From the IMG/VR virus record IMGVR_UViG_3300026224_000021: a DNA stretch of 34,928 nt, one strand, 5' to 3'. The notes under the pieces are model-generated. The model made no database searches, was not told the origin of the DNA, and worked only from the letters and a program-made list of their open reading frames with translations. Made by a program: the position numbers and the translations under genes. The stretch comes from a virus (taxonomy: Duplodnaviria; Heunggongvirae; Uroviricota; Caudoviricetes). This document shows positions 23,805 to 28,686 of the stretch, in pieces (positions within the stretch are counted from its first letter, which is position 1; every line of letters begins with the position of its first letter).

Positions 23805-23852
23805 CCCGGAACGGGCGCACAAAGAATTTGCGCACCCGTTCCGGGTTTTCTT
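23805..23852. terminator. terminator hairpin between convergent ogr and accessory operon
   Basis: cccggaacgg ... ccgttccggg stem with an inner gcgc pairing, followed on the plus strand by ttttcttattc. Confidence 0.6.
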
Positions 23853-24222
23853 ATTCAATGGCAGACAACTGATAATTTGTGTCTTCCTGCAGGCTGGTTA
23901 AAGAAATATTATCCAGTGCAGCCAGAATAACGTGCTGTGTATATAATCCGGAACATTTCATTGCCCGGACAATATCACCAACACTGTAATTTTCTTTTGT
24001 CGGGATATATCCACCACCCGGGCCGCGTGTGGCTTTTACCAGGCTACTTTCCCGTAAATATCTGAATATTTGCTCCAGATATGACAGTGAAACGGTTTCT
24101 TTGCTTAATTGCCGGAGCGAGATTGGCTTTCCGGTGTACTGTTTCACAAATTTAATCATTACCATAACTGCAACTGATGCACGCTGGCTTCCGGAATTAT
24201 CTTTCATCATGATTACTTCCAT
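23851..24222 (-). CDS. Rrf2-family transcriptional regulator, no Fe-S cysteine cluster
   Basis: SLSYLEQIFRYLRESSLVKATRGPGGGY matches the Rrf2 helix-turn-helix signature (compare IscR [29 protein letters not shown], from memory); only one Cys in the C-terminal half; start coupled as TAATG (alternative ATG at 24207). Confidence 0.7.
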   Translation of the reverse strand: MEVIMMKDNSGSQRASVAVMVMIKFVKQYTGKPISLRQLSKETVSLSYLEQIFRYLRESSLVKATRGPGGGYIPTKENYSVGDIVRAMKCSGLYTQHVILAALDNISLTSLQEDTNYQLSAIE

Positions 24223-24527
24223 TAATGGCATAAATTGATGGAGCGGGTCAGTGAATAAAGAGGCAATACATTCCATCCCTTAGAGCGCCAGCTGTCTGCA
24301 ACATCTTTACTTCTTGTTATCGCCGGTATTCCAATAGGATTATTTGCGTGCATCCATGCCACTGGCTCTGCTTCCAGTGATGCAAGTGCGATTTCCAGTG
24401 CGATTAACATATTGTGATCGTCTTCATCAAGACCGAACGGGATGTCTTCGCGCCACGATTTAAACTCTGTGATTTTACGTTGTAACCATTCTTTGGTAAT
24501 GGTGGACATAGTTACTCCTGTTTTCAC
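24222..24527 (-). CDS. hypothetical protein coupled between parR and the Rrf2 gene
   Basis: 101-aa ORF whose ATG overlaps the ParR stop (ATGA) and whose stop overlaps the Rrf2 start (TAATG). Confidence 0.5.
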   Translation of the reverse strand: MKTGVTMSTITKEWLQRKITEFKSWREDIPFGLDEDDHNMLIALEIALASLEAEPVAWMHANNPIGIPAITRSKDVADSWRSKGWNVLPLYSLTRSINLCH

Positions 24528-24838
24528 TTCGGGAAAAACGCCTGAATATTCTTTTTCACCTGCTGCATATGGGGGGCGCTGTCTGCTGCTGGTTGCGCCG
24601 GTTTTTCAGGCTGTACTGGTAGCGGTGGCATCCGTATTTCGTCTTCTGACCATTCTGCCAGTGAATACGCCAACGCGGGGGTGCGTTTTATAAGAGCCAG
24701 TCCGGCCAGAAAAGCCGCGCGTTGTGCGCGGCTGCGTTCGGAGGCTGGCAGGCTGTCGAGGTAACTGCACGCCTCCCGTTCGCTCTTGACGGCGGCGGGC
24801 TTCAGATAGAAACTTATCCGTCTGGTTGGTGTCGTCAT
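24524..24838 (-). CDS. parR: ParR/StbB-like ribbon-helix-helix partition adaptor
   Basis: about 105 aa from the internal Met; ISFYLKPAAVKSEREACSYLDSLPASERSRAQRAAFLAGLAL parallels plasmid R1 ParR IAFKLNPDV...CDTLDSIPQGERSRLNRAALTAGLAL (from memory); lies directly after the parM homolog. Confidence 0.7.
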   Translation of the reverse strand: MTTPTRRISFYLKPAAVKSEREACSYLDSLPASERSRAQRAAFLAGLALIKRTPALAYSLAEWSEDEIRMPPLPVQPEKPAQPAADSAPHMQQVKKNIQAFFPK

Positions 24839-25802: not shown

Positions 25803-25831
25803 GTCGCTTTTCCTTATGTTGATTAATTAAC

Positions 25832-25946
25832 CGTTTACGGGATTTTTAAATCCCGCTTTCGCCTGTTTTGTGCGCACTTCATGTTTTATGGCGCGTTTTT
25901 TGCTCATTTACGGGATTTGTGAATCCCGTTTCTGTCTGTTTTTTGT
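25832..25946. repeat. parC-like centromere/operator: two 41-bp direct repeats each containing an 8-bp palindrome
   Basis: 25832-25872 and 25906-25946 share tttacgggattt(t/g)t(a/g)aatcccg...ctgtttt with inner palindrome CGGGATTT...AAATCCCG; repeat 1 is just upstream of parM, repeat 2 lies inside the 3' end of gene A. Confidence 0.6.
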
Positions 25947-28686
25947 TTCCACTGGTCAGGCCACCCCGCAGCAGGTCTGCTTTGCGGTGGGCGCGTTCAG
26001 TGGTTTCACTGATTCTTTGTGCATGCTCTGCGTCACGGATGGCGCGCAGCATGTCAGAAAGCACGGTAACGGGTGTTTTCATGGTGTTCTGGTCTTGCTG
26101 AAGTGTGGATGCCAGGCGTGCGGCGGCTTCGGGGTCTGATGCCCCCAGCTGTTCCAGATAGCTGGCGACCGGGTTATGACGGATCTCCGTGCTGCTTACG
26201 CCGTGATTGCGGCTCAGGCGCTGCCAGAGCTGCGTGATTCGGCTGTCCGGGCGGGTATCCGGTTTGCGTACAATTTCAAATCCCTGCGGTGCAATGATGC
26301 TGCCGTCAACGTACAGGCTGCCGCCCCGTAACAGGTGCTGCATCTGCTGTTCACCGATATGCAGGCCGAGAGATTCGGCAGACTCCCGCCATTCTTTAGC
26401 GAGTAATTCGTGGTTATCAGGCAAAGGCCGCTGCTGTTTGCGGCTCTGTGTCCAGCTCTGCATTTCATCACTGCTGTTTTTTGCCTGTTTGTCACGCAGC
26501 GAACGCATCAGCGCCCGGCGTTCGTGCCGTTTCAGTGAGCGCATCCATTCGTTCACTTCAACGCCGTCAGGGAGCTGCGGCCACGGTGCTGGCCGTTCTT
26601 CCGGCTGTTCTGTCCCGTTGTTGTCCGTTTCCTGTACACGGGGACAGTTATTGCCACGAGTCCAAGGGGCGGCAGGGCCGCCCTGAAGGTCAAAACCATT
26701 TTCGCGGGCGCTGTCTTCCGCTTCCGGTTTGCGTCTTACCAGCTTCCAGTTATCCGGATGCGTGCATACGCGGGAAGACTCCCCAATGAGCGGCGACCAG
26801 ATCCCGTAAATCTGTACGCTCTGTTCACCGTAATCGTTCAGCTCATCTGCGAGGTCGTAGGCGGTGCGAATCAGGTAGTCCTTGCGTGGAACAAGCACGC
26901 CACCCTGTTTTTCAATGTAGGTGGCAAAACACCCGGCATCGGCGGCAGCGAGTACCGCATCCATTGCATCATCTTTCAGCCGTTGCGGGCCTTCCGGATT
27001 GCGTGCCATCTGGCTGGCAAGGCGGCGCAGTTCACGCCACACCTGACGGGAGGGGATACCAAAGAACTGGAACTGACGGACCCGGTGAAGGCGCGCCCAG
27101 CCGATGGCGCGCTCCACGCTCTCGGCCATTGATTTTCCGGTTTCGTGGTCAACGCGTGGCTTGCCCGTTTTCGGGTCGATGCCATCCACGGCGCGGCTGT
27201 CCAGGTTCTTTCCGATGTAGGTAGCGATGTAGCTGGTTGGTGTGCCTTTTGAGCCGTCGACATACTCCGCCTTAAAGCGCGGAGTAATATCATTGCCCAG
27301 CTCGTGGCGGTCCTCCTGAATGGCAATATCGCAGACGTGGGACACGATGGTTTCAATCTCGTCCGGATGTGCAAAGACCATCATATGCCAGTGCACGGTG
27401 CCGTCATGGTGAGGCTCCACCGTGCGGATGCCATACCAGCGCAGGCCGTCGCGGTTCAGTTTTTTGCGGACCGCCGCAAAAAACGTGTTAACCAGGTAAT
27501 CGCTGGAGTCGCGCATGGTGGCCCCGTTCCATTTGGGGTTCGGATGACCGTTCTCCGTTGTTGCGTGGTATTTTGACGGGCAGGTGACGGTCAGAAACAC
27601 CGCTCTGTCGCCACGGGCTTCGGCCAGAAGTTCCAGTCCCTTCATGGTGGCCATCATTTCTGCCTTACGGTGAACCGGGTTACTTACTCCCGCGTAATAC
27701 ACCGTCTCGAGATCAATCGTGAACCCGTCTTCATTTTCCAGCATGAAACTTTTCAGGAAATCGCGTGTTTTCTCGCGCTGTGCGCGAAACTCGCTTAACG
27801 CATCCTGGCTCAGATAGGGTGATGTTTTTCTGGAAACCAGACAGGCGGCGCGGAGTTGTTCTTCTCTCCACTCGCAACGTAACAGCCACAGTTTGCGTTT
27901 CCACCAGTCCGCACAGGTCAGGCGGAGGATTGCGCCCGGTAACAGTTCCGTATTCGGATCGCTCTTGTTCAGGGCTTCGTAATGTGGCGGCATGATGTGC
28001 AGGCATAATGCGATACGGGCTAGCATCCGGTAAGCCTTCAACATTACATCCATGGTCAGCTCGCCATCTCTGGCACCAAAGCCATCGCAGAGTGTTTCAA
28101 AGGTGCTGCTGAACATCGCCGCCGTCATGGTGGCCAGCGTCTGTATCTGGTGCTTGTTGAGCTGCGGCAGGTAAAGCAAATCGTCCAGGCGTTCTCGCCC
28201 GGCAAGGGAGCGATAACCCGGTGTCAGCCAGCGTCCGTCAGTGCGATCCAGACGTTCGAATATTTTGCGCAGGGTTCCGCGTGCATAGCGTTCCGCCTGC
28301 CAGCTCTTTTTGCCTTTCTGGCGATCGGCTTCCTGTTTTTTGCGCAGGAAGGAGAGGTGGCGAATAAGCGGATCGCGCAGATAGGATGGCAGCAGGCGCA
28401 GCGAGGCCATGGCTTCATCCACCGCGCCGCGTGCCTGTTTTCTGGCTTCTCTGGCCAGTGTGATGGTTTTGTCCTGTTTTTCCTGTGCGTCCAGGCTTTT
28501 ATTAATCAGGTTGCCCAGCGGTGTGGCGGAGAACGCCGCATCAGCCATTTCCTGGCGGCGTTCGTTCTCTGCCCGGTAGGCATCCAGCCAGGAGGAAAGT
28601 GCGGATTCAGGTGCGGGGATCTCCGTTCCTTCACGTCCTACTGCGTGGCGCGGTTGTTGCCAGTCCCTGATGTACTCTGTCGTCAT
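25879..28686 (-). CDS. A: replication initiation endonuclease (gpA-like rolling-circle Rep)
   Basis: 935-aa ORF with HUH-type motif HWHMMVF and paired tyrosines YIATY as in P2 A / phiX174 A-type Rep proteins; has a C-terminal extension relative to P2 A (about 761 aa). Confidence 0.75.
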   Translation of the reverse strand: MTTEYIRDWQQPRHAVGREGTEIPAPESALSSWLDAYRAENERRQEMADAAFSATPLGNLINKSLDAQEKQDKTITLAREARKQARGAVDEAMASLRLLPSYLRDPLIRHLSFLRKKQEADRQKGKKSWQAERYARGTLRKIFERLDRTDGRWLTPGYRSLAGRERLDDLLYLPQLNKHQIQTLATMTAAMFSSTFETLCDGFGARDGELTMDVMLKAYRMLARIALCLHIMPPHYEALNKSDPNTELLPGAILRLTCADWWKRKLWLLRCEWREEQLRAACLVSRKTSPYLSQDALSEFRAQREKTRDFLKSFMLENEDGFTIDLETVYYAGVSNPVHRKAEMMATMKGLELLAEARGDRAVFLTVTCPSKYHATTENGHPNPKWNGATMRDSSDYLVNTFFAAVRKKLNRDGLRWYGIRTVEPHHDGTVHWHMMVFAHPDEIETIVSHVCDIAIQEDRHELGNDITPRFKAEYVDGSKGTPTSYIATYIGKNLDSRAVDGIDPKTGKPRVDHETGKSMAESVERAIGWARLHRVRQFQFFGIPSRQVWRELRRLASQMARNPEGPQRLKDDAMDAVLAAADAGCFATYIEKQGGVLVPRKDYLIRTAYDLADELNDYGEQSVQIYGIWSPLIGESSRVCTHPDNWKLVRRKPEAEDSARENGFDLQGGPAAPWTRGNNCPRVQETDNNGTEQPEERPAPWPQLPDGVEVNEWMRSLKRHERRALMRSLRDKQAKNSSDEMQSWTQSRKQQRPLPDNHELLAKEWRESAESLGLHIGEQQMQHLLRGGSLYVDGSIIAPQGFEIVRKPDTRPDSRITQLWQRLSRNHGVSSTEIRHNPVASYLEQLGASDPEAAARLASTLQQDQNTMKTPVTVLSDMLRAIRDAEHAQRISETTERAHRKADLLRGGLTSGNKKQTETGFTNPVNEQKTRHKT

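Follow-up and report, generated by a model that had tools for sequence, protein, structure and literature searches.

Between the replication gene gpA and the portal gene of a P2-family temperate phage (IMG/VR record IMGVR_UViG_3300026224_000021; the window is this whole stretch of 34,928 nucleotides) lie four open reading frames on the minus strand, of which the first two resemble the parM and parR partition genes of plasmids. Do the four genes form a single system, as an earlier note on this DNA proposed, and what would a plasmid-type partition pair do in a phage that integrates? The note correctly placed the array in the slot which in P2 is occupied by tin/old (PMC9122126).

Organisation of the locus

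The features of the region are as follows.

22425-23459, plus strand: portal, the far flank of the array
23525-23782, plus strand: Ogr/Delta-type late activator (Ogr_Delta, 9e-13), single copy
23803-23847, no strand assigned: long hairpin with a perfect stem, lying where rrf2 and ogr converge, identified by folding energy
23851-24210, minus strand: rrf2, short Rrf2/IscR-like winged-helix regulator, 119 aa (Rrf2 PF02082, 2.2e-13 over residues 8-88)
24222-24509, minus strand: orf3, accessory protein, 95 aa (101 aa if GTG 24527 is used), no family match
24524-24838, minus strand: parR, predicted ribbon-helix-helix (RHH) centromere-binding adaptor, 104 aa (Plasmid_stab_B, 1.1e-24)
24843-25802, minus strand: parM, actin-fold partition ATPase, 319 aa (StbA_N, 5.8e-82; ParM C-domain, 1.1e-68)
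25834-25872, minus strand: proximal parC-like repeat unit, with palindrome CGGGATTTaaAAATCCCG at 25838-25855, starting 53 nt upstream of the parM ATG
25907-25945, minus strand: distal parC-like repeat unit, with palindrome ACGGGATTcacaAATCCCGT at 25910-25929, starting 126 nt upstream of the parM ATG
25879-28686, minus strand: gpA replication endonuclease, 935 aa (Phage_GPA, 1.3e-127), the backbone neighbour linked to parC-parMR

The Ogr/Delta gene belongs to the phage backbone, since it is the sole copy in the window, and it delimits the far side of the variable slot. The hairpin is likely to be a bidirectional terminator closing the minus-strand array. It folds at -39.7 kcal/mol (z=-8.4) on the minus strand and at -32.2 kcal/mol on the plus strand, and on the plus strand it has a T-run after it. 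Within the array no terminator was seen ahead of it.

The overlapping stop and start codons once described for these genes (ATGA, ATGA and TAATG) hold only in part. The TAATG at the orf3/rrf2 junction exists (ATG 24222), but it is not accompanied by a Shine-Dalgarno sequence. parR is placed directly 3' of parM, its ATG (24838) 4 nt past the parM TAA (24845-24843) and not overlapping it, and the only start codon that the parR TGA overlaps is a GTG (GTGA, not ATGA), which gives the 101-aa form of orf3. ATG 24509 is the better start for orf3; it lies 14 nt downstream of the parR TGA, has AGGAG ahead of it and yields 95 aa. The rrf2 start at 24210 (GGAAG-N5-ATG) leaves an 11-nt gap from orf3 and gives 119 aa, the length reported by most gene callers; PGAP gives 141 aa (up to 24276). 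The array is tight, with no gap above 14 nt, yet translational coupling is not demonstrable. The common strand, the short gaps and the lack of a terminator before the hairpin are compatible with co-expression, and some functional link of orf3 and rrf2 to parMR is possible.

A type II partition cassette

Profile searches upheld the original assignment of the four products as ParM-like (StbA_N and ParM C-domain), ParR-like (Plasmid_stab_B), a protein of unknown function and Rrf2. ParM matches both ParM Pfam domains over their full length, the R1 ParM structure 1mwk with E=1.2e-92, and IncF StbA with 46% identity over the full length; its motifs IDDGSTNIKL, PESIPAG, DLGGTTLD and GGGAE are identical or near-identical in the StbA alignment. 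ParR matches the pB171 ParR structure 2jd3 with E=0.006 and is 41% identical to IncF StbB over residues 1-63, the N-terminal RHH domain, whilst its linker and tail have diverged. Residues 1-15, at the DNA-reading N-terminus, and a C-terminal motif, N-I-x-x-x-F-P, in the tail that would dock into ParM, are conserved around a hypervariable linker, and the motif is common to three otherwise divergent ParR alleles.

The palindromic repeats reported at 25832-25946 are real: a 39-nt direct repeat occurs twice, at a spacing of 73, and within each copy lies a palindrome of 18-20 bp, CGGGAT-N6-ATCCCG. The exact palindrome occurs at these two sites only in the window, and none of 100 shuffled controls reached the observed palindrome count at up to two mismatches. 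The distal palindrome falls within the last codons of gpA. A consensus scan upstream of parM found no sigma-70 site, and no convincing promoter was seen; the centre of the proximal palindrome overlaps the single promoter-like sequence, a poor match to the consensus (TTTAAA-17-ATTAAT, 8/12). Across 99 of 99 related loci the palindromes keep their offsets of -126 (+/-1) and -53, and they are retained in Salmonella loci although a different gene precedes. They belong to parMR, because they are present with or without Rrf2.

The closest known relative is the ParMRC (StbA/StbB) locus of the IncFII plasmids R1 and R100, which has the same order of cis element, parM and parR, and a similar Shine-Dalgarno region. 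The cis elements differ, however. R1/R100 parC is made of 11-bp direct iterons in two blocks around a TTGACA promoter, whereas here there are two palindromes, and so four half-sites, 73 bp apart. Unlike the plasmid loci, moreover, the cassette is carried by a P2-family phage that integrates, where it is fused to the end of gpA. By the alignments it is related to, but diverged from, the IncF/R1 stbAB locus.

The clear homology to IncF stbAB, which extends into the leader (CATAAGGA), could also be expected of a captured plasmid fragment that persists as an inert remnant, or of a device for incompatibility with, or exclusion of, plasmids having the same centromere. Either is very improbable. All ParM motifs are intact and dN/dS for parM is 0.04-0.15; the position of the cis element is invariant; the palindromes are unlike IncF iterons, making cross-reaction with IncF parC unlikely; and up to three copies of parM are tolerated per E. 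coli genome. Judged from its substitution pattern, the cassette is under purifying selection and appears to be selectively maintained. No experimental study of it was found in the searchable literature.

A constant cassette and a variable slot

Among complete E. coli genomes parM is present in 1304 of 5426 and this type of gpA in 1328. The layout gpA-parC-parM-parR is common to phages P88, 569R5 and phiSM and to loci of Salmonella and E. albertii; it is a fixed backbone of the P88-like (Xuanwuvirus, P2-family) temperate phages. The presence of a parMR pair in a P2-like prophage is less unexpected than first supposed: Rousset et al. 2022 (PMC9122126) reported the partition system in roughly a quarter of the P2-like phages of E. 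coli. The locus coincides with the variable hotspot which that study describes between gpA and gpQ in these phages, and a table in it lists this exact arrangement; both the parM-parR cassette and the hotspot arrangement are already catalogued. Rousset et al. count the entire gpA-gpQ interval as hotspot, whereas in the P88-like lineage parC-parMR is constant and variation is confined to the part downstream of parR.

This variation bears directly on the proposal that all four genes are one partition or defence unit, with orf3 and Rrf2 as extra parts of a ParM machine. The genes share a strand, are separated by 14 nt at most and are followed by one strong hairpin, after rrf2 only; furthermore, the Rrf2 gene was seen solely in loci also carrying parMR. 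Against this, Rrf2 occurs in just 37 of the 5426 genomes, so that some 97% of those bearing parMR do without it. When the parR-to-portal interval was compared among 62 IMG/VR loci whose ParM is at least 98% identical in amino acid sequence, around 40 arrangements were found to follow the same ParM, and orf3 with Rrf2 accounted for five of the 62. Homologues of orf3 are found without Rrf2, and one locus with ogr and parMR has neither gene; the orf3 family is also widespread in phages lacking ParM. The four-gene reading fails because the genes occur separately, an outcome that the earlier note had itself named as evidence against it, and a single unit is now extremely unlikely. A search of PADLOC-DB v2 (E<=0.1) returned zero matches to defence models for all four proteins, whilst in the cargo of sibling loci the same search detected models for IetA, AbiLi, RmrA and PDC.

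The orf3 and rrf2 genes

The orf3 protein is a mosaic of an N-terminal helical module (MSTITKEWLQ...ALASLEAEPVAW), widespread in phages, and a small alpha/beta C-terminal module, and its alignment shows module swapping. It had no match in Pfam, NCBIfam or PADLOC, and its PHROG matches (660 and 60) are of unknown function. Some of its 274 homologues are named Eaa or DUF551. An AF2 model (pLDDT 85) gave no match in the PDB and only uncharacterised phage proteins in BFVD.

The Rrf2 protein scores above the PF02082 gathering score of 30 bits and has the N-terminal winged helix-turn-helix of that family. Matches to the IscR and CymR structures range from 1e-10 to 1e-7, with 8e-11 for IscR structure 4hf0. 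The winged helix aligns with that of IscR (PDB 4hf0/4hf1) over some 75 residues, including the recognition-helix motif SLSYLEQ(I/L)F (SLSYLEQxF) and the wing RGPGGGY. The three-Cys/His cluster site of IscR is absent: the protein ends about 34 residues past the wing, its single Cys lies in MKCSG, and the Fe-S ligands sought after the wing (three Cys plus His or Asp) were not present. An identity as an Fe-S sensor of the IscR/NsrR type is contradicted by the single Cys and by a score of 59 bits against the IscR equivalog, for which the cut-off is 207. Relatives are few: a single cluster is 99% identical, one further protein reaches 51% and the rest 47% or less. The gene for the 51% relative lies beside an IstB/DnaC-like helicase-loader gene in an unrelated locus without parMR.

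orf3 and rrf2 could instead form an independent two-gene anti-phage or anti-defence module. Their slot holds AbiL-like, IetA, RmrA-like, PDC-M04A and PDC-M11A genes in siblings, and tin/old in P2 (PMC9122126). An orf3-type gene precedes Rrf2 in 16 of 16 loci, so the two may be a pair, and Rrf2 appears to be under purifying selection, with a dN/dS of about 0.08-0.15 based on few substitutions. However, the pair drew zero defence-model matches, neither protein has an effector-like domain, small genes of the orf3 type are common accessory genes of the early region, and many hotspot genes serve functions other than defence (Rousset et al., PMC9122126). Such a role is improbable.

Lifestyle of the phage

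The window encodes a C repressor, Cox and a tyrosine integrase, and of 1444 places at which the cassette was found in complete E. coli genomes 1442 are chromosomal. Beside the cassette neither a theta replicon of plasmid type nor a copy-control module was seen. In P2, gpA initiates rolling-circle replication as part of the lytic cycle, in which faithful partition has no obvious benefit, and this counts against a partition role.

These observations also weigh on the suggestion of Rousset et al. (PMC9122126) that ParMRC gives rise to long-lived, true plasmid prophages, or phage-plasmids. The cassette is complete and apparently under selection, and one circular 'plasmid' record of 34,461 bp (n=1) is a complete P88-like genome, although this lone record could be an induced phage circle. 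Phage-plasmids usually occur as autonomous replicons that do not depend on integration, which is not what is found here; the genes for integration and lysogeny are present, the relative phiSM integrates at pdxB (PMC6456863), and the adjoining replication gene is of the lytic type. A permanent plasmid state is unlikely.

Parallels with other integrating elements and a proposed role

Two systems suggest how a partition cassette might serve an element which is normally chromosomal. The srpMRC module of the SXT/R391 ICEs, also of type II, stabilises the excised circle, which is replicated by a rolling-circle (HUH-type) initiator/relaxase (Carraro et al. 2015, PMC4489591). Its centromere consists of only four short repeats, bound as pairs, resembling the four half-sites of the parC-like element. 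The present cassette is closely related to R1 ParMR, SrpM and SrpR only distantly; and srpMRC sits on an ICE and has demonstrated activity, whereas this cassette sits on a phage and its activity is a predicted one. The integrated prophage CGP3 of Corynebacterium glutamicum likewise carries an actin-like filament gene and an adaptor. In AlpAC-alpS the filament former is accompanied by a co-transcribed adaptor whose binding sites lie in its own upstream region; excised circular phage DNA is tethered to filaments by the system, and the phage circle, once excised, requires AlpAC to replicate efficiently (Donovan et al. 2015, PMC4446434). AlpC is of a different actin-like lineage from an actinobacterial host.

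Together this evidence suggests that the region is probably a composite of two unrelated things, a parMRC cassette for which partition of the phage circle is proposed and a set of accessory hotspot genes. The first would be a complete type II partition cassette, comprising the parC-like palindrome pair, parM and parR, welded to the 3' end of gpA. The second would be this phage's filling of the gpA-gpQ hotspot, namely an Eaa/DUF551-like mosaic protein together with an IscR-like Rrf2 regulator that lacks the cluster, where siblings hold other small genes or anti-phage systems. For parMR alone, a maintenance module for an episomal phase is the best reading. By analogy with the ICE and CGP3 systems, the task of the cassette is most likely to partition or position the phage circle once it has been excised and is replicated by gpA.

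ParR dimers would bind the two palindromes, and the overlap of the proximal one with the weak promoter-like site may allow autoregulation. ParM-ATP filaments capped by ParR-parC would then push apart or position circular phage genomes, at a time coinciding with extrachromosomal gpA replication, be it after infection, upon excision or in a transient carrier state. orf3 and rrf2 would share the parMR transcript and act independently of partition. For the phage, the benefit may lie in better inheritance or replication of its circle, rather than in a permanent plasmid prophage.

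Organisation of the gpA–portal interval

The window represents a temperate phage of the P2 family; a tyrosine integrase, a C-type repressor and Cox are encoded at the right end. Four closely spaced minus-strand ORFs lie between the replication gene gpA and the Ogr/Delta gene and portal. The earlier note had called three of them as ParM, ParR and an Rrf2-type regulator; profile matches bear these calls out, and the observation was largely correct.

Features of the gpA–portal interval (window positions)
22425-23459, plus strand: portal
23525-23782, plus strand: Ogr/Delta gene
23851-24210, minus strand: Rrf2, short Rrf2 winged-helix protein (2.2e-13)
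24222-24509, minus strand: orf3, 95-aa accessory protein; no match in Pfam, NCBIfam or PADLOC
24524-24838, minus strand: ParR; Plasmid_stab_B (1.1e-24), weak match to the pB171 ParR structure
24843-25802, minus strand: ParM; full-length matches to both ParM Pfam domains (5.8e-82 and 1.1e-68), R1 ParM structure (E=1.2e-92)
25879-28686, minus strand: gpA replication gene, 935 aa; Phage_GPA (E=1e-127)

The four genes had also been described as joined by overlapping stop and start codons, which is accurate only in part. parM and parR are separated by a 4-nt gap. An overlap of parR and orf3 (GTGA) exists if a GTG start is used, although an ATG preceded by AGGAG sits 14 nt further on. At the TAATG of the orf3–rrf2 junction the start lacks a Shine–Dalgarno sequence, while the ATG at 24210 has one. 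The array ends in a strong hairpin (-39.7 kcal/mol) common to the convergent ogr gene. Rfam gave no RNA element within 23851-25960, and a 19-mer used as P2 cos query had no match in the window.

Elsewhere in the window, Rfam matches at gathering level were obtained for a C4 antisense RNA (29419-29506, minus strand, 80.5 bits) and the isrK sRNA (29542-29616, minus strand, 64.3 bits). Both sites fall within, or immediately 5' of, an Ash-family ORF of 326 aa (28693-29673), and the region resembles a c4-antirepressor immunity element of the P1/P7 type, here in a P2-family prophage.

The parM–parR cassette

Judged by sequence, the cassette looks complete and appears to have been kept by selection: the components of a type II partition system are present, intact and conserved. 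ParM is 46% identical to the IncF plasmid ParM, StbA, its nucleotide-binding motifs are intact, and its dN/dS is 0.04-0.15. These properties speak against a rival interpretation, considered very unlikely, in which parMR would be an inert remnant or an incompatibility determinant. ParR exists as at least three alleles, which differ in the linker but agree in the N-terminal segment that reads DNA and in the C-terminal tail N-I-x-x-x-F-P. The alleles of three related loci (L002, L003 and L010) are 53-68% identical to the ParR of the window (24524-24838), the linker being hypervariable and Pro/Gln-rich; ParM stays at least 97% identical across loci whose ParR alleles diverge. DNA homology to P88 ends within parR. 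In phiSM, a relative of P88, parM is 94.8% identical in DNA.

The presence of ParMR in phages of this type is already published and annotated, GenBank and PGAP annotation naming the genes ParM and partition protein. Experimental work on the phage parMR cassette was not found in the searchable literature. A ParM scan of genome contigs returned only three loci, one of them a probable contaminant, and says little on taxonomic spread. One contig (L100, NZ_JBQPOM010000071.1) from a Firmicute assembly, 'Vagococcus sp. WN89Y', carries a 97% identical ParM together with a P88-type portal, and is probably enterobacterial contamination of that assembly.

Palindromes upstream of parM

The palindromic repeats reported to front the operon are real: two 39-nt direct repeats with a spacing of 73 bp each hold a CGGGAT-N6-ATCCCG palindrome. 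Every one of the 99 loci whose upstream sequence was long enough has exactly two such palindromes, placed at -126 and -53 relative to the parM ATG. In E. coli, gpA crosses the distal, parC-like palindrome with its final 17 codons (window 25879-25945). The gpA of Salmonella relatives is 872 aa long and is followed by a separate 142-aa ORF, and there the palindrome is intergenic (locus L012, 3166-3708). Because a different gene precedes the palindromes in Salmonella, they can be assigned to parM and not to gpA.

Two other roles were considered. A function as gpA terminators is unlikely, the distal palindrome lying within the gpA frame and both lacking a U-tract, with folding energies of -11 kcal/mol each. 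A function as Rrf2 operators is ruled out, as the palindromes occur in all 99 parM loci, whereas Rrf2 is rare.

The arrangement differs from that of an R1-type centromere, which consists of direct 11-bp iterons in two blocks flanking a TTGACA promoter; the phage cassette has two palindromes instead. No R1-like 11-bp periodic A/C-rich repeats were detected upstream of parM, although they were obvious in the IncF plasmid control. A consensus promoter scan of the same region found no promoter, and the sole promoter-like match in a relaxed scan is weak and overlaps the proximal palindrome.

A two-gene cassette beside a variable slot

The proposal that parM, parR, orf3 and rrf2 form one coupled and possibly novel system is refuted by co-occurrence. 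Among 5426 complete E. coli genomes, parM with the start of parR is present in 1304 and the Rrf2 gene in only 37; gpA of the window type (at least 80% coverage) was counted in 1328 genomes, and ogr with the window portal type in 42. In P88 and vB_EcoM-569R5, gpA-parM-parR is followed by entirely different genes, and an E. coli locus of ovine origin carries ogr and parMR without orf3 and without Rrf2. A set of 80 IMG/VR loci was retrieved by ParM alone (all at least 98% identical), 62 of which extend to the portal. Across these 62 the parR-to-portal interval spans 1.0-4.2 kb in about 40 arrangements, that with orf3 and Rrf2 accounting for five.

Near-identical ParM (at least 98% at the amino acid level) occurs with either of two portal/terminase lineages sharing only 30% identity, as seen when window 22425-23782 is compared with loci L002, L008, L020 and L094. 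The first has a 344-aa portal beside ogr; in the second the portal is that of P88, 348 aa, and ogr lies at another place. The joint at which early and late modules recombined therefore lies within the parR–portal interval. Rousset et al. 2022 (PMC9122126) identify the gpA–gpQ interval as a hotspot.

In several sibling loci (L023, L084/L091, L062, L087 and L078) the orf3–rrf2 slot holds defence or candidate-defence genes. Cargo matching defence models comprises an AbiLi-like ATPase accompanied by a small partner, IetA beside an S8 protease, an RmrA-like gene, PDC-M04A and PDC-M11A.

orf3 and the Rrf2 regulator

Among the 274 homologues of orf3 are some called Eaa or DUF551; the alignment reveals a common N-terminal helical module ending in ALASLEAEPVAW and fused to many different C-terminal modules. 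Homologues with 59% identity sit in P88-type loci without Rrf2. Searches of Pfam, NCBIfam and PADLOC for a function gave nothing. A confident AF2 model (pLDDT 85) had no counterpart in the PDB (best E=0.9), and in BFVD its matches were all uncharacterised proteins of phages. With a dN/dS of 0.72, from 11 changes, orf3 does not look to be under selection. Rrf2 does look so, at a dN/dS of about 0.1, from few changes.

The best alignment of Rrf2 is to the winged helix of IscR, SLSYLEQxF and RGPGGGY being kept. It differs from IscR in having a single Cys and in ending soon after the wing, and for these reasons is unable to hold an IscR-type cluster. Outside the 99% cluster to which it belongs, its nearest relative shares 51% identity; the gene for that relative adjoins an IstB/DnaC-like helicase-loader gene, and the locus has no parMR.

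It has been suggested that the operon might be a defence system, and in an unlikely rival reading orf3 with Rrf2 would be an independent module of this kind; against this, a PADLOC scan gave zero matches for all four proteins. A further reading, which we consider improbable, is that the pair is not passive cargo: Rrf2, which keeps the IscR recognition helix and wing, might occupy IscR-type sites and rewire the host Fe-S/oxidative-stress regulon, or block a competing phage or plasmid, with expression from a ParR-controlled transcript and a dose tracking the copy state of the phage.

Lifestyle and significance

In the mechanism we infer for the two-gene cassette, ParR would bind the palindromes and ParM filaments would move copies of the phage circle. 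In a rival reading these phages would live as true phage-plasmids. One entry deposited as an E. coli plasmid, a circle of 34,461 bp (L018; PLSDB NZ_CP148288.1, 1-34461), comprises an entire P88-like phage genome, including integrase, repressor, Cox, gpA and ParMR. It may be an episome, or a circle of induced phage that was captured during assembly. Life as a permanent plasmid is nevertheless unlikely, since 1442 of 1444 places in complete E. coli genomes are chromosomal and the phage has an integrase. phiSM is a functional temperate phage which integrates at pdxB (PMC6456863).

The best analogues of the phage parMR are srpMRC of the SXT/R391 ICEs and AlpAC of prophage CGP3. srpMRC, which has a four-repeat centromere, stabilises the excised, relaxase-replicated ICE circle (PMC4489591), whilst AlpAC is required for efficient replication of excised phage DNA (PMC4446434). 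The tight linkage of parMR to gpA, a rolling-circle initiator, fits the analogy with an excised circle.

About one quarter of complete E. coli genomes contain an intact, selected actin-type partition machine in an integrated P2-family prophage. For hotspot mining, the boundary of the variable region is best set after parR and not after gpA. Should the cassette partition the excised circle replicated by gpA, in the way that srpMRC acts on ICEs, P2-like phages would have a plasmid-like phase with consequences for prophage stability, lysogenisation and the spread of adjoining defence cargo.
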